This document shows, piece after piece, positions 3,081-59,493 of a stretch of DNA of 59,504 nt. A program made the translations under genes and the position numbers. The DNA lies in contig CAZVUK010000002.1 in NCBI GenBank assembly GCA_964630225.1, forward strand, positions 1 to 59,504, read 5' to 3'. Position 1 is the stretch's first letter; each line of letters begins with the position of its first letter. The stretch comes from an uncultured Muribaculaceae bacterium. Lineage in GTDB: Bacteria > Bacillota_I > Bacilli_A > RF39 > UBA660. Under the pieces are notes generated by a model. The model saw only the letters and a program-made list of their open reading frames with translations. It searched no databases and was not told where the DNA came from.

Positions 3081-4423
3081 TGAAATATGAAGAGTTAAAA
3101 GAAAAATATCCTAGATTTATATATCGCAGTTATGATGTTGAAGAAAGTGATGAAGAAATGATTCTTCGCTTCAATTTTGAAATCGAAGGACTTGCTTCCT
3201 TTCATCCTGAAACAAGAATAGCTAAAAAATATATAATTAATGAATCTATCGATAAGAAATTTTTAAATGACTTAGTTTTTCATATTGGTTTAATTGAAAT
3301 GATAAGTTATTATAAAGCTACTGTTTCAAAAGAAATAATTATCGAGGCCGGTCATCTTGAAGAAAAACAGATAGAATTTATTAAAAAGCTTATTTTTAAC
3401 GGTTTGGGAGAGTTTTTTCATGTCAATGGTATTAATATAGACAATGATTTTGTCAAAATTACCACGACTGGTTCTAAAGCATTATATGATAATAAGTCGT
3501 ATAAAGGTGATGGAAACATGATTTTAGTCGGTGGAGGAAAAGATTCTAATGTAAGTCTAAAACTATTAAAGGGTATGAATAATGATGTGATGATACAAAA
3601 TATTAAAGATGTAACACTAAATTGTGCCTTGATCGGTGGGGTTTCTGAAAAAAACATCGTTTCGATTAAGCGTAGTATCGACCCTGAGTTGATAAGACTA
3701 AACAAAGAAGGATTCTTAAATGGCCACACCCCCTTTTCATCACTGCTTGCTTTTCAGTCATATTTAGTAGCATATCTTAGAAATAAGAAATACATTGTTT
3801 TGTCAAACGAAGACAGTGCCAACGAAGGAACGGTCATCGGAACTAATATCAACCACCAGTATTCTAAAAGTTATGAGTTTGAAAGTGACTTTCAAAACTA
3901 TGTTAGAAAATTTTTGCCGATCGATATTAATTACTTTAGTTTATTAAGACCTCTTTCTGAATATCAAATCGCGATGCTATTTTCTAAATATACGGAGTTT
4001 CATAGCGTTTTTCGAAGCTGTAATGTCGGAAGTAAAGAAAAACCTTGGAAATGGTGCTGCAACTGCTCGAAATGTCTATTTGTTTATATCGTTTTATCAC
4101 CATTTCTTAAAAAAGAAGAGCTAATTGCTATTTTTGGTGAAGATTTATACGATAAGGCATCACTGCTTGAAACTTTCCAAGAAATACTTGGTGAAACAGG
4201 TATTAAACCATTTGATTGCGTGGGATCATACAGTGAAGCTAAATATGCAGTAAGCAAAGTTATCGCCACGTATGAGGGGGAACTTCCATATTTATTAAAA
4301 TATTATAAAGATACCCATGAACTTGATTTAGTAAGTGATTATGAACATTTTTATAATGATGATCATAGTGTTCCTAATCAGTTTGAAACTATTTTGAAGG
4401 AGGAATTGGCTAAATATGTATGA
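3080..4423 (+). CDS. PP-loop (SGGxDS-like) ATP-pyrophosphatase-fold protein; candidate UDP-MurNAc-L-Ala-L-Glu epimerase (MurL-like)
   Basis: Has ILVGGGKDSNVS (PP-loop-like) and a C-terminal Cys cluster SCNVGSKEKPWKWCCNCSKC. 447 aa. Translationally coupled (8-nt overlap) to the MurD-family ligase downstream, which mirrors the murL-murD2 arrangement recalled from Xanthomonas. Confidence 0.5.
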   Translation: MKYEELKEKYPRFIYRSYDVEESDEEMILRFNFEIEGLASFHPETRIAKKYIINESIDKKFLNDLVFHIGLIEMISYYKATVSKEIIIEAGHLEEKQIEFIKKLIFNGLGEFFHVNGINIDNDFVKITTTGSKALYDNKSYKGDGNMILVGGGKDSNVSLKLLKGMNNDVMIQNIKDVTLNCALIGGVSEKNIVSIKRSIDPELIRLNKEGFLNGHTPFSSLLAFQSYLVAYLRNKKYIVLSNEDSANEGTVIGTNINHQYSKSYEFESDFQNYVRKFLPIDINYFSLLRPLSEYQIAMLFSKYTEFHSVFRSCNVGSKEKPWKWCCNCSKCLFVYIVLSPFLKKEELIAIFGEDLYDKASLLETFQEILGETGIKPFDCVGSYSEAKYAVSKVIATYEGELPYLLKYYKDTHELDLVSDYEHFYNDDHSVPNQFETILKEELAKYV

Positions 4424-26568: not shown

Positions 26569-26806
26569 AAAAAAATGACAAAATCCTTATATAGTATAGT
26601 TGTTAGTAAAAACAACAAAAATATAAAATCGACAAAAAAAGAAAAATACTTAAACTGTAAAGTTAGCAAAAGTTATTTTTCTCTAAAAACCATATGCAGC
26701 AAGGTTGTGCGTAAAAACACGAAAAAACAAGCTGTTTTTCTCACTTAAATCGATTGACTTTAGGTCCTGATTTTTCATAAAATGATAATACAGAGAGGAA
26801 AATATT

Positions 26807-29113
26807 ATGGAGAGTGAAGAAAAATTAAAAACGCTAAATGTTATTAAGCGAAATGGCAAAAGAGTCGAGTTTAATGCACCTAAAATAGCGGTAGCAATCA
26901 AGAAGGGATTTGATAGTGTAAATAATGTTTCCTCCGAAGAGGGCGGTGTTAAATACACTGAAAAAGACGTTCAAAAAGTTTATCAGGCTGTACTTAAGAG
27001 AATTGATAGTGAATATGAAGCCGAAGATAGGATTAAAATAGAAAGCATTCAAAATCTTATCGAAGATGAATTAAAAAATAAAAATTATCAAGAAGTATAC
27101 GATTCTTTCTCAGCTTATAGGGAGCGCAGAAACCAGTCTCGTGAAATGTTCTTTGATGATAAGCGAAAACACAAGTTTTTAAAGACGATCGAAGATCTAG
27201 GTCTAAAGTCATCTAACGAAGATGATACTAAAAGAGAAAATGCTAACGTCGATGGCGATACAGCAATGGGAACTATGCTTCAATATGGTTCAACTATCTC
27301 TAAAGAGTTTGCCAAGACATATCTGATCAAGAAAAAATACAGTGAAGCTCATGATGAAGGATATATACACATTCACGATATGGATTTTTACCCGATGGGA
27401 ACGACAACGTGTACACAAATTGATTTAGATAAACTATTTAAAAATGGTTTTTCGACAGGACACGGACATCTTAGAGAACCAAATGACATTATGTCATACT
27501 CGGCTTTAGCTGCAATAGCTATTCAAGCAAATCAAAATGATCAACATGGTGGACAAAGTATCCCTGCTTTTGATTATTACATGGCTCCTGGAGTCTTAAA
27601 AACCTATCGCAAGCAATTAAAACAAACATTAGCTGATATGATGGACTACGCAGGTTTTGCAACATTCATCAATATGGATACCGTTGCTAAAGAAATAGAT
27701 AAATTGGATTCTATCGATCACAATATTTCAGTATTCGATAGATTTATGAAAGATAATGAACAGTTACTTAGACTCTTTACCATGTCAACGATAAAAGCAA
27801 GAGCTAAGACAAATCGTATTACTTACCAGGCAATGGAAGCTTTTGTTCATAATTTAAATACGATGCATTCGCGTGCCGGAGCACAAGTCCCATTTTCTTC
27901 GATTAACCTTGGGACCGATACGACTCCAGAAGGAAGGATGGTTATAACAAACTTTCTAAAGGCTGTTGATTCAGGACTAGGTCTAGGAGAAACACCAATA
28001 TTCCCAATTTCAATATTCAAAGTTAAAGAAGGAATAAACTATAATAAAGAAGACCCTAACTATGATTTATTTAGACAGGCGTGCGCCGTTTCAGCAAAAA
28101 GACTATTCCCCAACTTCTCATTCCTTGATGCGCCGTTTAACAAAGCAGCGTACAAAGGAACTTATCAAACAGAAGTAGGATATATGGGATGCCGCACGAG
28201 AGTTCTAGCGAACGTTATCGACGAAGATAAAGCGGTAACACCAGGACGAGGTAATTTATCGTTTTCAACTATTAACTTACCTAGGCTTGGTCTTAAACAC
28301 GGTATTGTTCAAGGTGAGACGAAAGCCAATATGAAAGAGTTCTACAAAGAACTCGAAGAGGTTATGGAACTAGTCAAAGATCAGTTACTTGATCGCTTTG
28401 AGCATCAATGTAGCAAGAAAAGTTATAACTTCCCTTTCTTACTAGGACAGGGGTTATGGATAGACGCTGAAAAACTCAAAGCCGGAGATCGCATTAGAAA
28501 GGTTCTTAAAAACGGAACTTTAAGTATCGGTTTCATCGGTCTAGCTGAGTGTTTGAAAGCACTAACTGGAAAACACCACGCTGAAAGTGAAGAATCACAA
28601 AAGCTTGGACTTGAAATAATAAGTTTCATGCGTAAAAAGTGTGACGAGTTTGCCAAAGAGTACAATCTTAACTTTACTTGCCTAGCAACCCCAGCCGAAG
28701 GGCTATCGGGAAGATTTACCGGCATAGATAAAGCTATCTATGGAAAGATTAAAGGAATAACTGACAGAGATTATTATACTAACTCATTTCATGTACCGGT
28801 TTACTATCCGACCACGATTAAAAACAAAATAAATTTAGAAGCACCATATCATGCATTTACTAATGCAGGACACATAAGCTATATTGAGCTCGATGGTGAT
28901 ACCACCGAAAATCTTGATGCCTTTGAAAAGGTTGTCAGAATTATGAAGGAATCAGGCATTGGTTATGGAGCAATAAATCACCCGGTCGATAGAGATCCGG
29001 TCTGTGGATACATCGGAGTCATTAAAGATGTATGTCCAGGTTGTGGCCGTAAAGAAGGAGAGGGAGTAAGTATGGAACGGCTCTCTACTCGAGGAAGATC
29101 TTGTGGAATGTAA
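26807..29113 (+). CDS. nrdD: Anaerobic ribonucleoside-triphosphate reductase, large polypeptide lacking the glycyl-radical C-terminus
   Basis: N-terminal ATP-cone (VIKRNGKRVEFNAPKIAVAIKKGF). Class III RNR core. C-terminal Zn ribbon DPVCGYIGVIKDVCPGCG. It then runs through 14 unrelated codons to TAA 29111-29113, with no RxxGY radical motif. Confidence 0.9.
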   Translation: MESEEKLKTLNVIKRNGKRVEFNAPKIAVAIKKGFDSVNNVSSEEGGVKYTEKDVQKVYQAVLKRIDSEYEAEDRIKIESIQNLIEDELKNKNYQEVYDSFSAYRERRNQSREMFFDDKRKHKFLKTIEDLGLKSSNEDDTKRENANVDGDTAMGTMLQYGSTISKEFAKTYLIKKKYSEAHDEGYIHIHDMDFYPMGTTTCTQIDLDKLFKNGFSTGHGHLREPNDIMSYSALAAIAIQANQNDQHGGQSIPAFDYYMAPGVLKTYRKQLKQTLADMMDYAGFATFINMDTVAKEIDKLDSIDHNISVFDRFMKDNEQLLRLFTMSTIKARAKTNRITYQAMEAFVHNLNTMHSRAGAQVPFSSINLGTDTTPEGRMVITNFLKAVDSGLGLGETPIFPISIFKVKEGINYNKEDPNYDLFRQACAVSAKRLFPNFSFLDAPFNKAAYKGTYQTEVGYMGCRTRVLANVIDEDKAVTPGRGNLSFSTINLPRLGLKHGIVQGETKANMKEFYKELEEVMELVKDQLLDRFEHQCSKKSYNFPFLLGQGLWIDAEKLKAGDRIRKVLKNGTLSIGFIGLAECLKALTGKHHAESEESQKLGLEIISFMRKKCDEFAKEYNLNFTCLATPAEGLSGRFTGIDKAIYGKIKGITDRDYYTNSFHVPVYYPTTIKNKINLEAPYHAFTNAGHISYIELDGDTTENLDAFEKVVRIMKESGIGYGAINHPVDRDPVCGYIGVIKDVCPGCGRKEGEGVSMERLSTRGRSCGM

Positions 29114-29152
29114 TTAAATATTTGTAATAATATAAAGAAGGAGAGGATTATT

Positions 29153-29329
29153 ATGAAAACAGAAAAAGATGTAAAAAGCGCAAAAATGGTTGGAGAGGGA
29201 GTAGGTTTCGAAAGAATCCGTAGAATTACTGGATATCTAGTTGGAACAGTCGATCGCTTCAACAACGGAAAAAAAGCTGAAGAGCATGATCGTGTTAAAC
29301 ATTCTGGCATTAACGACATATATCTATAA
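29153..29329 (+). CDS. Stand-alone NrdD glycyl-radical C-terminal domain (58 aa)
   Basis: Below the ORF-track cutoff. SD aaggagagg (29138-29146), ATG 29153. Same frame as nrdD. Translation MKTEKDVKSAKMVGEGVGFERIRRITGYLVGTVDRFNNGKKAEEHDRVKHSGINDIYL carries the RRITGYL glycyl-radical motif and an NxGKxxE...RVKH tail. The stop overlaps the nrdG start (TAATG). Confidence 0.7.
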   Translation: MKTEKDVKSAKMVGEGVGFERIRRITGYLVGTVDRFNNGKKAEEHDRVKHSGINDIYL

Positions 29330-29883
29330 TGAAAATTAGATTATCTGGTCCTATGACAAAGGACAGTATAGTCGATGGTGAAGGACTTAGGGCAGTGGTG
29401 TGGACGCAAGGATGTCCGCATAACTGCCCTTCTTGTCATAATCCTAGCACTCATAGCTATACTGCTGGAGAAATGATTGATATCTCTGCTATAAAACGAG
29501 AAATAGATACACTAGAAGGTCACGATGGAATAACATTATCTGGTGGCGACCCTTTAGAGCAAGTCGAAGCTTGCCTTGAAATAGCTAAGTATAGTCATAA
29601 AAAGGGACTAAATGTCTGGTGCTACACAGGTTATCGATACGAAGAGCTAATGCACATGGCCAAAGAAAAACCAGTCATCATCGATTTTCTCAAGGAAATT
29701 GATAGACTGATAGATGGTAGATTCTTAATAGCTCTAAAAAGTTTTGAAGCACCTTTTAGAGGATCGAGAAACCAAAGAATTATTGATGTAGCTGCTTCCC
29801 TAGCAGCAGGTGTAGTTATCGAAGATGAAAAGTATATGCTCAAGGATGATGCTAAACACGATAGTGAGAAAGTTTACATTTAA
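29329..29883 (+). CDS. nrdG: Anaerobic ribonucleotide reductase activating protein (radical SAM)
   Basis: Radical-SAM cluster motif GCPHNCPSCHN and SGGDP; 184 aa. Translationally coupled to the upstream ORF. Confidence 0.9.
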   Translation: MKIRLSGPMTKDSIVDGEGLRAVVWTQGCPHNCPSCHNPSTHSYTAGEMIDISAIKREIDTLEGHDGITLSGGDPLEQVEACLEIAKYSHKKGLNVWCYTGYRYEELMHMAKEKPVIIDFLKEIDRLIDGRFLIALKSFEAPFRGSRNQRIIDVAASLAAGVVIEDEKYMLKDDAKHDSEKVYI

Positions 29884-30818: not shown

Positions 30819-32450
30819 ATGTCAAAGATATCGATAATAACATATGATAAAAAGCTTATATTTGATACAGTAAACTTTATCGAAGAAAAAGTTAATTTAA
30901 ATAACACTAATGTTATCGATGTCGAAACTATGTATTTTAGCGATATATATATTGCTAAAAACATGTACACTATGACTAGTTTTTTAAATCTGATTGTTGC
31001 TAAAAAGAATATAAAAGAACTTGTCATAAAGAAAATAAATATAGCTCCACTAGTTCTTAAATTGACAAAAGATATCCCGATACTAAGTAAAGTAACTATC
31101 GAAGAAGATGTAAACATTAACTATGAAACATACGAGGCTTTAACCTTAGCTGAACATCTTAAAGAAGTCGAATGTTTTTCGATGCCTCCGTTTATGTTTG
31201 ATAGTTTAGATCACAAATATAATAAAACCATAAAGCTACGTCAAAAAGAGATGTTCTACAGTCCCTTTATGAAGGTTAATAAATTAGAAAGCTTCGATGA
31301 AATATATTATTGTCGTAAGATAATCATCGCTGAAAAACCAAGTAGCACAGATCTCGAAGACATAGCATCATTTTTTAGAATCAATAATAGAATAAGATTG
31401 ATAGAGTTTCACTATTACGATTACAATCTAGTAACGACTATTATCGCTTATTTGAACAGAAATAATGCTCAAAACGTTTTGATTAAAATTAAACATATTG
31501 AAAATGAGAATGTTATCTCGCTTGTAAATCAGTTAGAAAAAAGCCATGCTCGGTATTTTAAGAACAACAAAGTCAGAATTAAAATTGATTACAAGAATGA
31601 ACACAAAAGCAAATACTTCTTAAAACAGTTTAATCTTAGTTTATTTAGAGCGATACTAATTATTGCAATAGTTATTATTTTACTTTTACTAAGCGTATTT
31701 AATTACAAGGAAAGACAGGATGCCAAAGCTAGCAAAAAAATAGACCAAGTAACTCAAGGAATTGGTGATGAAATGAGTGGTATTCAAGCAGCTATCGATA
31801 GCGAAATGGATGCCCAGGAAGCAATCATGGCCGCTGAAGCTAGTGGTACTGAACTTCCACACGATGCTTCTTATGATATTTATTTTCAAAAACTTGAAAA
31901 AGTTTGGGATAGCTTAATAAGTAAAAACGAAGACACGGTAGGCTGGCTAAAAGTAAATGGCAGTAAAGTTGATTACCCGGTCGTACAGGCCAAAGATAAT
32001 ATCTATTATCTAAACCGCAACTTTTACAAAAAAAGAAATATCTATGGTTGGATATTTATGGATTATCGTAACAAAAAAGCTAAGATGGATCAAAATACTA
32101 TTATATATGGTCATAGAACTAACAACGGCATTATGTTTGGTACACTTAAAAATGTGTTAAAGAAATCGTGGTACACAAATCCTGCTAATCAGGTGATAAG
32201 TTTCAATACGACAGCTGAAACTCATAACTGGAAAATATTTTCTATTTATACAATCGGTGCAACCGATGATTATTTATACAATAATTTTTATAACGATAAT
32301 CAAAGAGTCGATTTTTTCAACAAACTTAGAAATCGCAGTATTCATAACTTTGCAGTCGAAGTCGGAGCTAAAGATAAAATTCTCACTTTGTCTACATGTT
32401 ATGAGGGAGCAGAAAAACGATTAGTCATCCACGCAAAGATGATTGACTGA
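30819..32450 (+). CDS. srtB: Class B sortase fused to a ~270-aa N-terminal cytoplasmic domain of unknown function
   Basis: The C-terminal ~200 aa match SrtB hallmarks: VGWLKVNGSKVDYPVVQAKDN, IFMDYRN, TIIYGHR, ILTLSTC, RLVIHAK. TM at LFRAILIIAIVIILLLLSVF (about aa 273-292). Nothing is recognisable in aa 1-270. Confidence 0.85.
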   Translation: MSKISIITYDKKLIFDTVNFIEEKVNLNNTNVIDVETMYFSDIYIAKNMYTMTSFLNLIVAKKNIKELVIKKINIAPLVLKLTKDIPILSKVTIEEDVNINYETYEALTLAEHLKEVECFSMPPFMFDSLDHKYNKTIKLRQKEMFYSPFMKVNKLESFDEIYYCRKIIIAEKPSSTDLEDIASFFRINNRIRLIEFHYYDYNLVTTIIAYLNRNNAQNVLIKIKHIENENVISLVNQLEKSHARYFKNNKVRIKIDYKNEHKSKYFLKQFNLSLFRAILIIAIVIILLLLSVFNYKERQDAKASKKIDQVTQGIGDEMSGIQAAIDSEMDAQEAIMAAEASGTELPHDASYDIYFQKLEKVWDSLISKNEDTVGWLKVNGSKVDYPVVQAKDNIYYLNRNFYKKRNIYGWIFMDYRNKKAKMDQNTIIYGHRTNNGIMFGTLKNVLKKSWYTNPANQVISFNTTAETHNWKIFSIYTIGATDDYLYNNFYNDNQRVDFFNKLRNRSIHNFAVEVGAKDKILTLSTCYEGAEKRLVIHAKMID

Positions 32451-41185: not shown

Positions 41186-44100
41186 ATGTTTAATAGGAAG
41201 CTCGAAAATGATAAAGGTTTTACCCTAGTAGAAATCATATCGACAGTAATTATACTATCGATAATATTATTAATTGCAGTACCTGCAATTGGAAATTTAC
41301 TAAATGGATTTAGGACAGATTATTATAAGAAATTACAAAAGACTGTTAAAACCAGTGGTCAAGATTATATAAATGATAATCGCCGACTTAGACCTTCAGG
41401 AGTTTTTGAATCCTATGTTATTACAACTAAAGTTTTAGAGACCGATAAAAAAATAGATAAAGTAGTAGACTATCGTAAGAAAGCTTGTTCTAATACAAGC
41501 TATGCGATAGTTATTAAAACGGCAGATAAAAAATATCAATATGAAAGTTGTCTTTCTTGCCCGGAAGATAGTTATACAACGACTCTTAAAGATCGTCCAT
41601 ACTGTCACCCAGCGTGGAAGAACAATGATAATATATCTATAGAATTGTCTACCCCGCCAAAAGATATTTATATTCCTATAAATGCAAATATGGCATACAT
41701 AAGAGAAAAATTAGGAATAAAGAAACAGATTGTTAAAAAAGACAGTAGTGGCAAGATTATTGCTGCTCTTACGGTTGATGATGAAGATGTTATCCTGCCA
41801 GAAAATATCAATGGTTTTGTTGGTACAACAGCTGTTTCAGGACAAGCTATTTATAATTATGGAGGAAAGACGATTCAAACGAATGTTCATATCTTCCAAA
41901 ATGAAGCACCTAAAGTTACGATGACTAACATAAGAAATGGAACTCCTTATACAGCAGGAACCTGGACTTCAGGAGTTAGAGTAATACTGGCAGCCAACGA
42001 TGAATATTTTAATATCTTAAACTTAAAGATTTCAGAATATCAAGTATATGATGTTGCGAAAGGCACTTGGACAAAAATTACTTCTTGTCCAGCGGAATCT
42101 ACTTCTTGTACGATCAACTATAATACGACGATGGTTAGAAATTACCGATATAGGATTATCGTAGCGGGAGGATCGACAAGTAAAATAACGGCAGCTTATA
42201 GCTTCAAAATAGATGCTTCAGTGCCAAATTGTAATATAAACATGATTGATGGAAGTGGCGGTGCATATACAGGTGCTTACATCAACACTAATCAAGTGAC
42301 CATTAGATACTCGGCAGATGATCCGCAGTATGAAGGACTTCCGTTAAGTAGTATGTCTAAAGCAGAACTTTATATCACTAGCTCAAATCCAAATGAACCT
42401 GTTGTTACACAGACACTTACTGCAAACGTTGCACCTTGGCGAACAATTCATACGATAACCGATGAGGGAAGCTACAGCATCATGCTGAAATGCTACGATA
42501 CTGTTGGTAACTATAATACAGCCAGCGCAAACATAAATATTTTACGCGATATATCAGTTAAGTTTTATTCGCCAACTTCGACAACCTTATATGCAACGAC
42601 AACTTATCAATATAATAAAGCCCTTGGAACTCTTCCTACGCCAGCGCGTACTGGACATACTTTCCAAGGATGGTTTACAACGCCAACAACTGGTGGAACG
42701 AAGGCGGTTGCTACGACAGTGCTTACAACAACATCTAATACTTACAGTCTATTTGCTAGATGGACCGCAAATATATATACATTAACATATAATTCAAATG
42801 GTGGAACAACCGTTACTAACCCAACTAGTTATACCTATGGTGTTGGGGTATCATCGTTTACCAACCCAACGAGGACGGGATATCGTTTTGCTGGCTGGCA
42901 TGATGGAACATCGGTTAAAGCTAGTATCACGGCAACCGATCTTGGGAACAAAACTTTAACAGCGCAGTGGACAGCTAACACCTATACCATTGTTTATAAT
43001 GGTGCTGGAAATACGTCAGGTACGATGGCTAATACGAAATGTACTTACAACGCAACTTGTACTCTTCGAGCTAATGCTTTTGTTAGAACGGGAAATAATT
43101 TCATGGGATGGTCTTTAACTAATGGAGGAGTGGTTGCTCACAACAACAGTGCCACCGTTAGTAACTTAAGTTCGACTCATAATGCAACGATCAATCTTTA
43201 TGCTATCTGGAGTCGCAGTAGTTATACAATTACATATAACTTAAACGGCGGAACTAATCCATCTACCAATCCAGGATCATATACATATGGAGATACTATT
43301 ACCTTTGCCAGTCCAACAAGAACAGGATATCGTTTTGATGGATGGTATAAAGAAGCAGCTTTTACAAATAGAGTTACGGGCATTACAGCAACAGGTACCG
43401 GAGCGGTAGTTGTCTATGCTAAATGGCTTGCCAACACTTATTTCATCGATTATGCAGCTAATGGTGCAACTAGTGGTACGATGGCTAGAACAACCTGTAC
43501 TTATGGAACTGGTTGTACCCTTCGAACTAACACTTTTGCTAGAACTGATTATCGTTTTAACAACTGGAGTTCGGGTGGTAAGACTTATGCTGATTTAGCT
43601 AACGTCACAAATCTTACAGCAACCCATAATGGAGTAATAACTATGACTGCTAACTGGGTTCAACGTGTAAATTATATATATCTTCTTCATGGATTTAGTG
43701 GAGGAACCTCCAATCTCTATGGCTTTGGAACCCAATCTATAAATATGAATGCCAATGCACCATATTATTTGGATACAGCGGGTTATGTCGATGCCACAGC
43801 TCAAGCCAATGGGTATAGCTTAGCTACTTATGTATATCCTGCAGCAGGGTGGACTTGGAGTACAAGAACGCTAATTTCTGGTCTGGCGCCAAATAAATAT
43901 AATGGTGTATACTTCACTGCTCCAGAGACACAAGAATATAGAGTAACATCATATATGTTTCCAAATGGAGGAACACGTCTTGGGACTGTAACTTGGTCGG
44001 GAAGCACTCTTTACCAAGATCAAACCTTCCAACAAGGAAGCATTTGGAAGACGGTCGATACCGGAACTAATATTACAGTCCCGGCTGTCGCGGCGGCTAG

Positions 44101-45127
44101 GACGGGTTATAGCTTCACTGGCTGGCTCGGGGAGAATGGAACAATTTACAATGCTAGCAATGTTGTAGGAATGACCGCAGCTTTAGCGGGAACAGACTTA
44201 AACTTTGTCTTTAGAGCACAATGGCTGGGTAATCCTTACACCGTTAGTTTTAATGCTAACGGCGGAACCGGAACAATGGCAGCTCTTAACTGCCGTATTG
44301 GTCAAACCTGTACTCTTCCTGCCGAAGCTTACACTAACAACTGTTATAAATTTGATGGTTGGGCAACAAGTGCCGCTGGTGCTGTTGTTTATAGTGATAG
44401 AGCGACCGTCGCTCTTACCGCAAATGTAACCCTTTATGCGAAATGGAGTGCCAACTATGTTAACAACACAACTACTTGTGCTGCTTGTAGCGTATCCTGT
44501 GGCGGCGGAACACAAACTTGTACCGTCACGAAAAAAGATACGGCAACCGGTGTTGCCTGCCCAGCAAGTTTAAATACCAGTTACTCTCAAGCTTGTAATA
44601 CACAATCGTGCTGTTCGTCAGTAACGACAAGTTATGGTGCATGGGGTGCTTGTAGTGCATCTTGTGGTGGCGGAACGCAAACAAGATCAGTAACGACAAA
44701 AAGTACATATAATGGAGCAACCTGCAGTACTTCGACGCAAAGTCAGGCATGTAACACCCAAACTTGTCTTGTCGAACCTAACGCAACAATATATGCCCAA
44801 CAGTTAACGACATGTGTAAACGGTGTTTACTTTTACACAACACAGGCGCAAAACCCATCGAGATGGATAACAACAGAAATGACAGTACACTGGGTTATAA
44901 GTGGTGCCGTGGTTGCAACCTATTACGGTGATTTAGCAGGAACGAATCCGGGAGGTTTTGGTCCATGGTATGCTTATAATTTTGGAGCACCACCACCTGC
45001 TCCAGCAACGACTAGTGGCTACTATGTAACTAGACATACGGAACTATACTTTAGGTTAAAAGGTAAAATAGCAACGACTGGAGCGGCAATTATTAACCAG
45101 TCAGGATATGGAGGATGTTCAGTATAA
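41186..45127 (+). CDS. Giant (1,313 aa) type IV pilin-like modular surface protein A: prepilin leader, pilin-like head, about 7 Listeria-Bacteroides-type repeats, 2 TSP1-like repeats, C-terminal domain
   Basis: Strong SD gggtaggagg. N-terminus MFNRKLENDKG|FTLVEIISTVIILSIILLIAVP is a class III signal with Glu+5. Seven T(G)Y.F.GW motifs. TSP1-like motifs CSVSCGGGTQTC and WGACSASCGGGTQTR. Confidence 0.85.
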   Translation: MFNRKLENDKGFTLVEIISTVIILSIILLIAVPAIGNLLNGFRTDYYKKLQKTVKTSGQDYINDNRRLRPSGVFESYVITTKVLETDKKIDKVVDYRKKACSNTSYAIVIKTADKKYQYESCLSCPEDSYTTTLKDRPYCHPAWKNNDNISIELSTPPKDIYIPINANMAYIREKLGIKKQIVKKDSSGKIIAALTVDDEDVILPENINGFVGTTAVSGQAIYNYGGKTIQTNVHIFQNEAPKVTMTNIRNGTPYTAGTWTSGVRVILAANDEYFNILNLKISEYQVYDVAKGTWTKITSCPAESTSCTINYNTTMVRNYRYRIIVAGGSTSKITAAYSFKIDASVPNCNINMIDGSGGAYTGAYINTNQVTIRYSADDPQYEGLPLSSMSKAELYITSSNPNEPVVTQTLTANVAPWRTIHTITDEGSYSIMLKCYDTVGNYNTASANINILRDISVKFYSPTSTTLYATTTYQYNKALGTLPTPARTGHTFQGWFTTPTTGGTKAVATTVLTTTSNTYSLFARWTANIYTLTYNSNGGTTVTNPTSYTYGVGVSSFTNPTRTGYRFAGWHDGTSVKASITATDLGNKTLTAQWTANTYTIVYNGAGNTSGTMANTKCTYNATCTLRANAFVRTGNNFMGWSLTNGGVVAHNNSATVSNLSSTHNATINLYAIWSRSSYTITYNLNGGTNPSTNPGSYTYGDTITFASPTRTGYRFDGWYKEAAFTNRVTGITATGTGAVVVYAKWLANTYFIDYAANGATSGTMARTTCTYGTGCTLRTNTFARTDYRFNNWSSGGKTYADLANVTNLTATHNGVITMTANWVQRVNYIYLLHGFSGGTSNLYGFGTQSINMNANAPYYLDTAGYVDATAQANGYSLATYVYPAAGWTWSTRTLISGLAPNKYNGVYFTAPETQEYRVTSYMFPNGGTRLGTVTWSGSTLYQDQTFQQGSIWKTVDTGTNITVPAVAAARTGYSFTGWLGENGTIYNASNVVGMTAALAGTDLNFVFRAQWLGNPYTVSFNANGGTGTMAALNCRIGQTCTLPAEAYTNNCYKFDGWATSAAGAVVYSDRATVALTANVTLYAKWSANYVNNTTTCAACSVSCGGGTQTCTVTKKDTATGVACPASLNTSYSQACNTQSCCSSVTTSYGAWGACSASCGGGTQTRSVTTKSTYNGATCSTSTQSQACNTQTCLVEPNATIYAQQLTTCVNGVYFYTTQAQNPSRWITTEMTVHWVISGAVVATYYGDLAGTNPGGFGPWYAYNFGAPPPAPATTSGYYVTRHTELYFRLKGKIATTGAAIINQSGYGGCSV

Positions 45128-47497: not shown

Positions 47498-50400
47498 ATG
47501 AAAAAGATTAATAATAATGTCAAGGGCTTCACACTTATAGAAATAATATCGACAGTTATCATTTTGTCGATAATTTTATTGATAGCAATACCAACTTTTA
47601 GTAGAATTTTGGCAGGATTTAGAAAAGATTACTACAGTAAATTACAAGATACTGTTCAAAAAGTAGGTAAAGACTATATAAATGATAATAGGCGTCTTAG
47701 ACCAGTTGGAGTATTTCAGACAAGGATTATTAAAGTACCTGTTTTAGTTCAGGCTAAAAAGATGGATGCTCTAATTGATTACAAAAAGAAACCTTGTTCA
47801 ACGGATAGTTATATAGTTGCAGTTAAAACAGCTGATAAAAAATTTGAATATACGAGCTGTTTAACTTGTTCGGAAGATCAGTATCAAACCGATGTAAATG
47901 ATTATAAATATTGTCATCCTGCGTGGCTTACTAACGATAATATATTTGTTGAAATGTCGCCACCTCCGGCAGATATATACATACCACTTAATGCAAGTAT
48001 CGATTACATAAAAAGTAAATTAGGTATTACTAAAAGTATCGTTAAAAAAGATAGTACAGGTAAAATAATAGCTTCATTACCGGTTGATGATAAAGATATT
48101 ATCTATCCTAATAATATAAATTCATTTATTGGGACAACTGCTCAAGATGGAGTAGCTTTCTATCAGTATGGAAGTCAAACCATTCAAACCAATGTTCATA
48201 TTTATCAAAACTCAGCACCTAAGTTAAGTTTTGTTAATGTTAAGAATGGAACTGATTATGTACCGGGTACTTGGTCTTCGGCAGTTAGACTTACGATCGA
48301 AGCAAATGACCAGTATTTTGGAATATTAAATCTAACTATTAAAGAATATCAATATATGGACGAAAGTGGCGTATGGAAAAAGATTGATAATTGTACGGCC
48401 GGTTTAAAGTCTTGTACTTTCACATATAATGAAACAATGAATTCATCGATGAAGTTTAGAATTATCAATAACGGAGATGCAGCTAGTAAAGAGACGTCTT
48501 TCTATAGTGTCAGAGTTGATGCTTCGACTCCAAACTGTTATATGAGCATGCTCGATGCAAGTGGTGCTGCCTACAGTGGTAATTACATCAACACTTCATC
48601 AATAAGAGTTAATTATAAAGCCGATGATCCGCAGTATGCAGGTTTACCTGCTAGTAGCATTCAAAATGTTGAACTATATATAAATGGAGTACTTACTGAT
48701 ACACATAATCTAAATGGAACAAACGTCTATACATGGACGACAATTAAAACCATTACTAATGAAGGATCCTACAGCGCGATGCTAAAGTGTTACGATACCG
48801 TAGGAAACTTTAGTACGGCAAATGGAACAATTAATATTTTAAGAGATATCGATGTTCAGTTCTATTCACCATCTTCAACGACGCTATTCCAAACACTTTC
48901 ATATCAATATAACAAAGCCATGGCAAGTCTTCCAACTCCAAGTAGAACGGGATATACTTTTAATGGCTGGTTTGATACTCCGGCATCAGCGGGAACGCAG
49001 TATCTTGCTACAACCGTTTTGGATACGACAATAGAACCACTTAAGTTGTTCTCGAGATGGACAGCTAATATCTACAATATATCTTATGTATATAATGGAG
49101 GAACAACTGTCTCTAACCCAAGTAGCTATGTTTTTGCTACCGGTGTTGCTGGTTTTGCAAGCCCAAGTAGAACCGGATACATATTCGGTGGATGGTATAA
49201 AGAAGCATCACTAGTTACGAGAGTTACTAGCATATCGACAACTGATTATGGAAACTATACACTCTATGCCAAGTGGACCCCAATTACTTATACGATGACT
49301 TATAATGCTAATGGTGGTGCAGGTACGATGGCAAGTACCGTCTGTACTTATGATACAGTTTGTACTTTGAGAACTAATACTTTCACCAAAACGGGAACGA
49401 GCTTTATCGGCTGGGCAAACAGCACTACAGGAGCGGTTGTCTATGCCAATGGTGATACCATTAACAACTTGACGACAACTAACGGAGCAAGTTTTACCCT
49501 CTATGCAAAATGGCAAAATAATACTTACGGAATAACATACAGTTTAGGCGGAGGAACTCATAGTGGAAATCCGACCTTCTATACATATGGAACAGGAACA
49601 GCTAGTTTTGCCAATGCGAGCAGAACCGGATATATATTCGGTGGATGGTATAGCGACTCAGCACTAACTGTTAGAGTGACAAGTATTTCTACGACCGCAA
49701 CAGGCGATATTACCCTCTATGCAAAATGGACCGCTATTACTTACACTATAGCTTATGCTGCAAATGGTGGAAGTGGCGCAATGTCCAATACAACTTGTAC
49801 TTATGGTGTAGGCTGTGTGCTAAGATCTAACGCCTTTACGCAAACTGGATATCGTTTTACCCTATGGTCATACGGCGGAAGTAATTACAATGACGGAGCA
49901 ACCGTAACTAATTTAACAACAACTAATGGAGCTGTTTTAACATTTACAGCTAACTGGGTTCAACGTGTAAATTATATATATCTTCTTCATGGATTTAGTG
50001 GAGGAACCTCCAATCTCTATGGCTTTGGAACCCAATCTATAAATATGAATGCCAATGCACCATATTATTTGGATACAGCGGGTTATGTCGATGCCACAGC
50101 TCAAGCCAATGGGTATAGCTTAGCTACTTATGTATATCCTGCAGCAGGGTGGACTTGGAGTACAAGAACGCTAATTTCTGGTCTGGCGCCAAATAAATAT
50201 AATGGTGTATACTTCACTGCTCCAGAGACACAAGAATATAGAGTAACATCATATATGTTTCCAAATGGAGGAACACGTCTTGGGACTGTAACTTGGTCGG
50301 GAAGCACTCTTTACCAAGATCAAACCTTCCAACAAGGAAGCATTTGGAAGACGGTCGATACCGGAACTAATATTACAGTCCCGGCTGTCGCGGCGGCTAG

Positions 50401-51427
50401 GACGGGTTATAGCTTCACTGGCTGGCTCGGGGAGAATGGAACAATTTACAATGCTAGCAATGTTGTAGGAATGACCGCAGCTTTAGCGGGAACAGACTTA
50501 AACTTTGTCTTTAGAGCACAATGGCTGGGTAATCCTTACACCGTTAGTTTTAATGCTAACGGCGGAACCGGAACAATGGCAGCTCTTAACTGCCGTATTG
50601 GTCAAACCTGTACTCTTCCTGCCGAAGCTTACACTAACAACTGTTATAAATTTGATGGTTGGGCAACAAGTGCCGCTGGTGCTGTTGTTTATAGTGATAG
50701 AGCGACCGTCGCTCTTACCGCAAATGTAACCCTTTATGCGAAATGGAGTGCCAACTATGTTAACAACACAACTACTTGTGCTGCTTGTAGCGTATCCTGT
50801 GGCGGCGGAACACAAACTTGTACCGTCACGAAAAAAGATACGGCAACCGGTGTTGCCTGCCCAGCAAGTTTAAATACCAGTTACTCTCAAGCTTGTAATA
50901 CACAATCGTGCTGTTCGTCAGTAACGACAAGTTATGGTGCATGGGGTGCTTGTAGTGCATCTTGTGGTGGCGGAACGCAAACAAGATCAGTAACGACAAA
51001 AAGTACATATAATGGAGCAACCTGCAGTACTTCGACGCAAAGTCAGGCATGTAACACCCAAACTTGTCTTGTCGAACCTAACGCAACAATATATGCCCAA
51101 CAGTTAACGACATGTGTAAACGGTGTTTACTTTTACACAACACAGGCGCAAAACCCATCGAGATGGATAACAACAGAAATGACAGTACACTGGGTTATAA
51201 GTGGTGCCGTGGTTGCAACCTATTACGGTGATTTAGCAGGAACGAATCCGGGAGGTTTTGGTCCATGGTATGCTTATAATTTTGGAGCACCACCACCTGC
51301 TCCAGCAACGACTAGTGGCTACTATGTAACTAGACATACGGAACTATACTTTAGGTTAAAAGGTAAAATAGCAACGACTGGAGCGGCAATTATTAACCAG
51401 TCAGGATATGGAGGATGTTCAGTATAA
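47498..51427 (+). CDS. Giant (1,309 aa) type IV pilin-like modular surface protein B (paralog of A)
   Basis: N-terminus MKKINNNVKG|FTLIEIISTVIILSIILLIAIP. Same domain order as A. The first ~820 aa are diverged from A (roughly half to two-thirds identical by eye). The last ~490 aa are identical. Confidence 0.85.
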   Translation: MKKINNNVKGFTLIEIISTVIILSIILLIAIPTFSRILAGFRKDYYSKLQDTVQKVGKDYINDNRRLRPVGVFQTRIIKVPVLVQAKKMDALIDYKKKPCSTDSYIVAVKTADKKFEYTSCLTCSEDQYQTDVNDYKYCHPAWLTNDNIFVEMSPPPADIYIPLNASIDYIKSKLGITKSIVKKDSTGKIIASLPVDDKDIIYPNNINSFIGTTAQDGVAFYQYGSQTIQTNVHIYQNSAPKLSFVNVKNGTDYVPGTWSSAVRLTIEANDQYFGILNLTIKEYQYMDESGVWKKIDNCTAGLKSCTFTYNETMNSSMKFRIINNGDAASKETSFYSVRVDASTPNCYMSMLDASGAAYSGNYINTSSIRVNYKADDPQYAGLPASSIQNVELYINGVLTDTHNLNGTNVYTWTTIKTITNEGSYSAMLKCYDTVGNFSTANGTINILRDIDVQFYSPSSTTLFQTLSYQYNKAMASLPTPSRTGYTFNGWFDTPASAGTQYLATTVLDTTIEPLKLFSRWTANIYNISYVYNGGTTVSNPSSYVFATGVAGFASPSRTGYIFGGWYKEASLVTRVTSISTTDYGNYTLYAKWTPITYTMTYNANGGAGTMASTVCTYDTVCTLRTNTFTKTGTSFIGWANSTTGAVVYANGDTINNLTTTNGASFTLYAKWQNNTYGITYSLGGGTHSGNPTFYTYGTGTASFANASRTGYIFGGWYSDSALTVRVTSISTTATGDITLYAKWTAITYTIAYAANGGSGAMSNTTCTYGVGCVLRSNAFTQTGYRFTLWSYGGSNYNDGATVTNLTTTNGAVLTFTANWVQRVNYIYLLHGFSGGTSNLYGFGTQSINMNANAPYYLDTAGYVDATAQANGYSLATYVYPAAGWTWSTRTLISGLAPNKYNGVYFTAPETQEYRVTSYMFPNGGTRLGTVTWSGSTLYQDQTFQQGSIWKTVDTGTNITVPAVAAARTGYSFTGWLGENGTIYNASNVVGMTAALAGTDLNFVFRAQWLGNPYTVSFNANGGTGTMAALNCRIGQTCTLPAEAYTNNCYKFDGWATSAAGAVVYSDRATVALTANVTLYAKWSANYVNNTTTCAACSVSCGGGTQTCTVTKKDTATGVACPASLNTSYSQACNTQSCCSSVTTSYGAWGACSASCGGGTQTRSVTTKSTYNGATCSTSTQSQACNTQTCLVEPNATIYAQQLTTCVNGVYFYTTQAQNPSRWITTEMTVHWVISGAVVATYYGDLAGTNPGGFGPWYAYNFGAPPPAPATTSGYYVTRHTELYFRLKGKIATTGAAIINQSGYGGCSV

Positions 51428-59331: not shown

Positions 59332-59408
59332 GGGTGATTAGCTCAATTGGTCAGAGCACCTGCCTTACAAGCAGGGGGTTATAGGTTCGAGTCCTATATC
59401 GCCCACCA
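59332..59408 (+). tRNA. tRNA-Val (anticodon TAC), CCA encoded
   Basis: Hand-folded cloverleaf. Acceptor gggtgat/atcgccc, D arm gctc..gagc, anticodon stem cctgc/gcagg with loop cttacaa, T arm atagg-ttcgagt-cctat, then A-CCA. Confidence 0.9.
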
Positions 59409-59417
59409 TTTATAGAT

Positions 59418-59493
59418 GCCGAAATAGCTCAATTGGTAGAGCAACTGATTTGTAATCAGTAGGTTCCGGGTTCAAGTCCTGGCTTCGGCACCA
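59418..59493 (+). tRNA. tRNA-Thr (anticodon TGT), CCA encoded
   Basis: Hand-folded cloverleaf. Acceptor gccgaaa/cttcggc (one A-C mismatch at pair 7-66), anticodon stem actga/tcagt with loop tttgtaa, T arm ccggg-ttcaagt-cctgg, then A-CCA. Confidence 0.85.

Follow-up and report, generated by a model that had tools for sequence, protein, structure and literature searches.

To our knowledge, glycyl-radical enzymes bear their active site and their radical glycine on one chain, the sole known exception being GrcA/YfiD. The free radical domain of GrcA/YfiD can be activated and complement pyruvate formate-lyase (PFL), and according to a review of June 2026 no glycyl-radical enzymes other than formate lyases have spare-part proteins that are known (PMC13450708). 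In the class III ribonucleotide reductase (RNR) of Prevotella copri, the radical domain of the NrdD chain behaves as a rigid body that is mobile and loses its order with dATP (PMC11226230). In the literature that we searched, which spans not all journals, no class III RNR was described whose radical domain is encoded separately; for split NrdD or NrdD spare parts, the search returned only phage genes split by introns, inteins or endonuclease genes and a split class II enzyme. Here we analysed the nrdD locus in a 59,504-nt stretch of contig CAZVUK010000002.1 from an uncultured Muribaculaceae bacterium (assembly GCA_964630225.1), hereafter the window, in which a large open reading frame (ORF) without the radical glycine is followed by a small ORF that encodes the missing domain and then by nrdG. 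Judged by comparison with its relatives, the locus probably encodes a functional two-subunit class III RNR from an operon of nrdD-large, nrdD-small and nrdG.

The large ORF (26807–29113; like the other parts of the nrd locus, on the plus strand) encodes 768 residues with an ATP-cone (residues 11–109), the catalytic barrel and a zinc ribbon. It keeps the NxN flap and the catalytic cysteine: Cys462 in the motif GYMGCRTRV, with its codon at 28190–28192, aligns with the thiyl-radical Cys416 of P. copri NrdD (residue numbers after PMC11226230; the PDB chain numbering is offset by +4). The radical glycine is missing. The split falls right after CPGCGR, the final cysteine pair of the zinc ribbon (residues 743–748, 29033–29050), and the large ORF stops 20 residues past this motif without an RxxGY, ending in ...CPGCGRKEGEGVSMERLSTRGRSCGM (...DPVCGYIGVIKDVCPGCGRKEGEGVSMERLSTRGRSCGM-TAA) with the TAA at 29111–29113. 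A non-coding spacer of 39 nt (29114–29152) holds the Shine–Dalgarno (SD) sequence AAGGAGAGG at 29138–29146, ahead of the small ORF (29153–29329), which lies in frame with the large one. Its 58-residue product is a stand-alone glycyl-radical domain, MKTEKDVKSAKMVGEGVGFERIRRITGYLVGTVDRFNNGKKAEEHDRVKHSGINDIYL, in which the motif RRITGYLVG contains the predicted radical glycine, Gly27 (codon GGA, 29231–29233), aligning with Gly711 of P. copri NrdD. The following gene, nrdG (29329–29883), encodes a radical-SAM activating enzyme of 184 residues (TIGR02491, 136.6 bits against a cutoff of 126.1), and its ATG shares one base with the stop codon of the small ORF (TAATG).

Profile searches assigned the two ORFs to adjoining parts of the same models. 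On NF005497 (746 positions), the large ORF matched positions 3–715 with 996 bits and the small ORF positions 711–744, and on the Pfam model NRDD (PF13597, 562 positions) the respective matches were 1–532 (E = 1.3e-187) and 533–562. The Pfam and NCBIfam matches of the small ORF were to NrdD models only, with none to Gly_radical or a PFL family. Against the P. copri NrdD chain (8P23), the large ORF aligned to residues 8–705, ending at the zinc-ribbon motif CPKCGSH, and the small ORF matched residues 707–740, IDKLQRITGYLVG..., so that the break in the polypeptide falls between the zinc ribbon and the glycine loop. No second RNR was found among the ORFs of at least 600 residues in the window. Since the large chain carries no radical glycine, the small protein would be an obligatory subunit rather than a back-up.

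A scan with one genome per species retrieved 80 related loci, chiefly from metagenome-assembled genomes of uncultured 'Bacilli/Tenericutes' from guts and digesters, together with some Erysipelotrichaceae and Clostridia. With the window included, the identical split was present in 57 of 81 loci, and two further loci were cut by contig ends. An ordinary fused nrdD was scored in 18 loci, and three more fused loci (L070, L073 and L079) fell outside the classifying pattern or were left unscored by it. The order large ORF, small ORF, nrdG recurs in the relatives. An earlier note on this DNA, made from the sequence alone, had proposed an alignment with close relatives as a check; the three closest, with large subunits 93, 85 and 83% identical to that of the window, all showed the same split and the same neighbour genes.

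Selection was judged from codon-position patterns in alignments. In a 114-nt core alignment of 52 small ORFs, 39 columns were invariant, all of them at first (17) or second (22) positions of a codon and none at a third, and the codon of the radical glycine was GGN in all 52 sequences (columns 43–44). When eight species of one sub-clade were compared, the large-ORF tail varied chiefly at third positions, and the spacer of the same species contained indels and could not be aligned except for the SD and the ATG. Spacer length and sequence differed even among the closest relatives. These patterns indicate strong purifying selection on the small ORF and on the proximal tail of the large ORF.

The same data bear on the possibility, raised in the earlier note, that a recent duplication or insertion broke nrdD and that both pieces are now decaying as a pseudogene in the making. 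Consistent with such decay, the radical glycine is absent from the large ORF, the closest relatives differ from one another in the distal tail and in the spacer, and decayed NrdD homologues do exist in the family. In one of these (L058, 2977–5334) serine replaces the radical glycine (RKITSYL), in the other (L075, 2995–5166) the zinc ribbon and the radical domain are gone and isoleucine stands in place of the thiyl cysteine, and in neither does nrdG lie downstream. The two homologues show what true decay looks like, and the split loci, which keep the catalytic residues and nrdG, are unlike them. Given also that the split is shared by species-level loci of both Bacilli-like and Clostridia lineages, that none of the 39 invariant small-ORF columns is a third position and that the proximal tail is likewise constrained, a pseudogene is a very improbable account of this locus.

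Recoding was considered as a further explanation: a bypass, hop or read-through between the two identical 12-nt strings described below, or RNA splicing, would yield a single fused NrdD with the junction peptide CGRKEGEGVGFER. In the window, the two ORFs indeed share one frame and identical GGAGAGGGAGTA strings stand 135 nt apart. Among the split loci, however, the frame of the small ORF relative to the large one is 0, +1 and +2 in 20, 22 and 15 cases, respectively, and the stop-to-start gap varies from 1 to 66 nt. Such an even spread over the frames is expected of two independent genes and excludes read-through, hopping or frameshifting as a mechanism of the whole family. The small ORF has a start of its own throughout, with ATG in 56 of the 57 split loci and an SD-like sequence ahead in nearly all of them; the strings differ synonymously in 15 of 17 genomes, and the putative take-off codon does not directly precede a stop. 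At the RNA level, a single contig from a metatranscriptome (206 nt, depth 3.9) follows the DNA colinearly over 28990–29195, running through the stop, the spacer and the start, which weakly supports co-transcription without splicing. Rfam gave nothing in the nrdD region, neither an intron nor another RNA family, its matches in the window being two tRNAs only. Taken together, these observations leave recoding with hardly any probability.

The 135 nt could finally be an artefact of sequencing or assembly, as the earlier note had also allowed. Public runs in which the 1-kb junction is present come from several independent metagenome studies, which sampled bioreactors, wastewater, food production and manure, and contigs from four runs cover 28700–29700 with 0–3 substitutions and with no indel or joint. 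An intact junction in four independent assemblies from three kinds of environment (bioreactor, food production and wastewater) excludes such an error for practical purposes, and the same layout in dozens of other genomes points the same way.

The repeats that accompany the split were then compared between genomes. The two copies of GGAGAGGGAGTA, each encoding Gly-Glu-Gly-Val, lie at 29057–29068 in the tail of the large subunit and at 29192–29203 in the small subunit (Gly14-Glu-Gly-Val17), and their similarity extends to 21 nt with 86% identity. The SD sits within a 14-nt copy (29133–29146) of 29050–29063, TAAAGAAGGAGAGG, and this SD-supplying copy was found in the window genome only. The earlier note had placed the two ORFs, the SD, the 12-nt repeats and this third partial copy at just these positions, and all of its coordinates hold. 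Its picture of direct repeats on either side of a 135-nt in-frame insertion misleads, since the repeat encodes a peptide motif conserved in both proteins and is no target-site duplication. In the large subunit, GEGV follows the zinc ribbon in the context ...CGR-x-E-G-E-G-V-x-phi-E-K/R-phi..., and in the small subunit it precedes FERIRR. The identity of the 12-nt copies, exact in the window, is not general: among the 17 genomes compared, it is complete only in the window and in L172, the other 15 matching at 9–11 of 12 positions, and the GEGV copies of relatives usually differ at synonymous sites. Both copies in L172 (1365–1563) read GGAGAGGGCGTA, a synonymous change relative to the window that is common to the two, and the presence of two perfect pairs in 17 genomes may hint at occasional gene conversion. 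On these alignments, the 12-nt repeat is a conserved motif of two related coding segments and does not mark a recent insertion.

The C-terminal tail of the large subunit (KEGEGVSMERLSTRGRSCGM plus TAA, 29051–29113), whose end had been taken for 14 unrelated codons, turned out to be conserved in relatives and to resemble the start of the radical domain. Conservation covers the proximal E-G-V-x-phi-E-K/R-phi and often a distal CxC or CC pair, and MAFFT places the tail on the start of the small ORF. In split genes of the Clostridia type, the tails are longer (29–50 residues), and a search with one of them retrieved a family of such tails. The long tails align column for column with the true radical domains of fused relatives, with which they have in common an initial GE, a central aromatic residue and a distal EE-x-DR-x-x-N/H. 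The tail of L067 matched its own small ORF in BLASTP without gaps (E = 0.002, 12 of 34 residues identical), and a profile of 15 long tails matched a profile of 24 small ORFs in hhalign over 38 columns with 32% identity (E = 2.5e-4, probability 43%). The long tail of L080 gave no BLASTP match to its own small ORF, and the Pfam Gly_radical matches in long-tail proteins fall for the most part upstream of the tail and thus add nothing to tail homology. In some Clostridia-type tails of about 45 residues (L088:5001–5972, P0408, P0411, P0456 and P0457), K/R-I-K-G-Y is kept at the radical position. Besides its RIKGY tail, L088 encodes a canonical small protein in an ORF of its own, as well as nrdG, and loci of this type may represent an intermediate in which a cis and a trans radical domain coexist.

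The split arrangement is old and most likely arose from a tandem duplication of the linker and radical-domain segment, an origin to which these comparisons lend moderate support. After the duplication, the upstream copy, still fused, would have decayed from a long tail to one of 29 residues and then to one of 10–25 residues, and the downstream copy would have turned into a separate gene. The purine-rich, SD-like GEGV codons may have aided the gain of a ribosome-binding site by the downstream copy.

Alternatively, the pair could be functional but have been split by a mobile element (a homing endonuclease, an intron or a prophage end) that was later lost. Such elements do occur in the family: in L085 (384–5361) and L088 (847–5510), nrdD is in pieces with an intein (Intein_splicing/LAGLIDADG) and NUMOD4 endonuclease genes between them, and about 1.9 kb of phage-like genes separate the large and small ORFs of L100. 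The small gene is also carried by phages, and there are documented cases in which such elements split nrdA and nrdD of phages (PMC3653736). However, neither the 39-nt spacer of the window nor the 1–66-nt spacers of its relatives hold any remnant of an element, and a plain insertion leaves the radical-domain-like tail unexplained. We regard a mobile element as an unlikely, though not negligible, source of the split and favour the tandem duplication. As a separate observation, several gene calls in L085 and L088 start at one point (M-L/I-W-VPVYY), suggesting a recurrent insertion site.

The best 120 database matches of the small ORF were all 51–73 residues long, and one identical protein of 57 residues occurred on 192 contigs of up to 251 kb, flanked by a 762-residue NRDD gene and a radical-SAM gene in every contig inspected. 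Among representatives at 50% identity, the small-ORF query gave 2056 matches with E <= 1e-3, 620 of them with E <= 1e-10; of the 2056, the best 150 were all short (49–162 residues, mostly 55–85), and a few of the longer ones among these 150, in which the match is C-terminal, are probably fragments of fused genes. The best 120 matches of the large ORF measured 761–802 residues, and the split-type tail ended 20 of 20 of those aligned. In the source annotation, the large piece is named 'anaerobic ribonucleoside triphosphate reductase', and the small piece is mostly unnamed, one being called a full reductase.

The small gene was further sought in viral genomes. When IMG/VR was scanned with the alignment of small ORFs, 551 stretches were confirmed, of which the best 80 loci were inspected. 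Large-subunit motifs (HP.DRDP or GCRTR) were present in the fetched flanks of only about 10 of these 80, compared with almost all of the bacterial loci. A small ORF of 54 residues lies between DNA methyltransferase and endolysin genes on a 52-kb contig (L092, 3507–3671), and another of 54 residues lies between genes for a RusA-like resolvase and a large terminase on a contig of 92 kb (L102, 3483–3647). Further stand-alone versions are L093:3447–3653, L090 (about 3475–3638) and L153:3285–3635. Altogether, the stand-alone proteins of phages and prophages are 54–116 residues long and are encoded amid replication, packaging and lysis genes; no large-subunit motif was found within about 3.5 kb of the small genes of L090, L092, L093, L102 and L153, and PHROGs has no dedicated family for the small protein. 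In L100 (79–3638), a split-type large piece is followed by the L092-like phage genes, the small ORF and then an endolysin-like gene, showing that the small gene is not always adjacent to the large one. The orphan phage copies make sense if the small protein acts in trans on the large subunit of the host.

The comparative evidence thus favours a working NrdD in two pieces whose radical domain acts in trans, the option that the earlier note had listed first. In the enzyme that we propose, the three genes would be co-transcribed, the small ORF would be translated from its own ribosome-binding site, and translation of nrdG would be coupled to that of the small ORF. NrdG would abstract a hydrogen from Gly27 while the small protein is free or only loosely bound, and the small protein would then dock non-covalently in the barrel of the large subunit, at the site of the covalent domain in ordinary NrdD, and hand the radical to Cys462. 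Docking in trans is plausible in view of the mobility of the P. copri radical domain and the precedent of GrcA/YfiD. Oxygen cuts glycyl-radical proteins at the radical glycine, and on this basis we speculate that the advantage of a separate radical subunit could lie in its replacement without remaking the 768-residue protein; separate control of arming is an equally speculative benefit. A broader extension, which we put forward tentatively and hold with rather less than even confidence, is that many anaerobic Bacillota possess an exchangeable radical subunit of about 6 kDa that is activated by NrdG and either swapped after oxygen damage or used to control arming, and that the phage orphans are auxiliary metabolic genes that re-arm or boost the large subunit of the host.

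Several points weigh against the two-subunit enzyme or its proposed origin, or limit the case for them. Fused and split forms were interleaved in an unbootstrapped neighbour-joining tree of 53 taxa, a pattern that either repeated fission, re-fusion by deletion between the GEGV copies or exchange of the 3' end could produce. In the sub-lineage of the window, the distal tail is decaying, with the CxC lost and L172 truncated, and the role of the tail may not be essential. AlphaFold2 on the concatenated pair gave a mean predicted local distance difference test score of 59.5, with residues 688–826 below 50; the input was a shallow alignment of 60 large-subunit and 44 small-protein rows, in which the listed homologues were all at least 72% identical, and this poor model is uninformative about docking. 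Support at the RNA level is a single contig of low depth, possibly reflecting DNA carry-over, and the hhalign probability of 43% backs the duplication origin only modestly. The case as a whole is built on sequence.

Other features of the region were also recorded. Upstream of nrdD, a promoter-like site (TTGACT-18-TAAAAT, 26754–26783) is a weak match to the consensus, and promoter-like sites in the region did not exceed the number expected from shuffled sequence. Between the two ORFs, a site scan found no terminator-like and no plus-strand promoter-like sites, and inspection by eye found no convincing NrdR box upstream of nrdD. Beside the nrd operon, a gene conserved at this place in the closest relatives (30819–32450) encodes 543 residues with a sortase domain confined to the last 165 and an N-terminal part of 375 residues without a Pfam match. 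Further along, two paralogous ORFs of about 1310 residues (41186–45127 and 47498–51427) carry Listeria-Bacteroides repeats and, near the C terminus, a thrombospondin type 1 domain, which is unusual for a bacterium. Two adjoining tRNA genes (59332–59490) lie at the right end of the window.

Among described systems, the bypass in T4 gene 60 resembles the window in having identical short strings around a non-coding gap in one frame. However, the window has no stop after the take-off codon and its downstream ORF has its own start, and neither the frame nor the distance nor the strings are conserved in its relatives. Phage RNR genes in pieces (Aeh1 nrdA, the T-even nrdD intron and phiAS4 nrdD; PMC3653736) likewise distribute the catalytic chain over consecutive ORFs, but their pieces are interrupted by introns, inteins or endonuclease genes, none of which is present in the window. 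In the split class II enzyme NrdJa/NrdJb of Pseudomonas aeruginosa (PMC9669993), two consecutive ORFs also jointly cover a single-chain homologue, although this enzyme belongs to another RNR class and is broken at another point, and NrdJb carries C-terminal zinc-finger/IscU-like domains for shuttling reductant instead of a radical-bearing element. With single-chain NrdD (P. copri 8P23 and phage T4 1H7A), the window shares the order of ATP-cone, barrel, zinc ribbon and glycine loop, the thiyl cysteine, the NxN flap, the RxxGY motif and an adjacent activase gene, and it differs in that the glycine loop is on a separate polypeptide and the large chain has a conserved extra tail.

GrcA/YfiD is, like the product of the small ORF, a small free-standing protein consisting essentially of a glycyl-radical domain. 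For both, the presumption is that the cognate radical-SAM activase activates the protein and that it inserts in trans into the large enzyme's barrel. The two differ in descent, GrcA being homologous to the C terminus of PFL and the window protein to that of NrdD, and in their partners, because GrcA coexists with a full-length PFL that has a radical domain of its own and rescues it after cleavage by oxygen. If the two-subunit reading is correct, an essential enzyme of DNA-precursor synthesis can have its radical domain act as a diffusible subunit, offering a natural minimal substrate for the long-standing question of how an activase reaches a glycine buried in the barrel, and anaerobes of guts and digesters would have a cheap route of repair after exposure to oxygen. 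The phage-borne orphans would suggest a new kind of auxiliary metabolic gene, and the locus would provide the first radical domain of the spare-part or subunit type outside the formate lyases.

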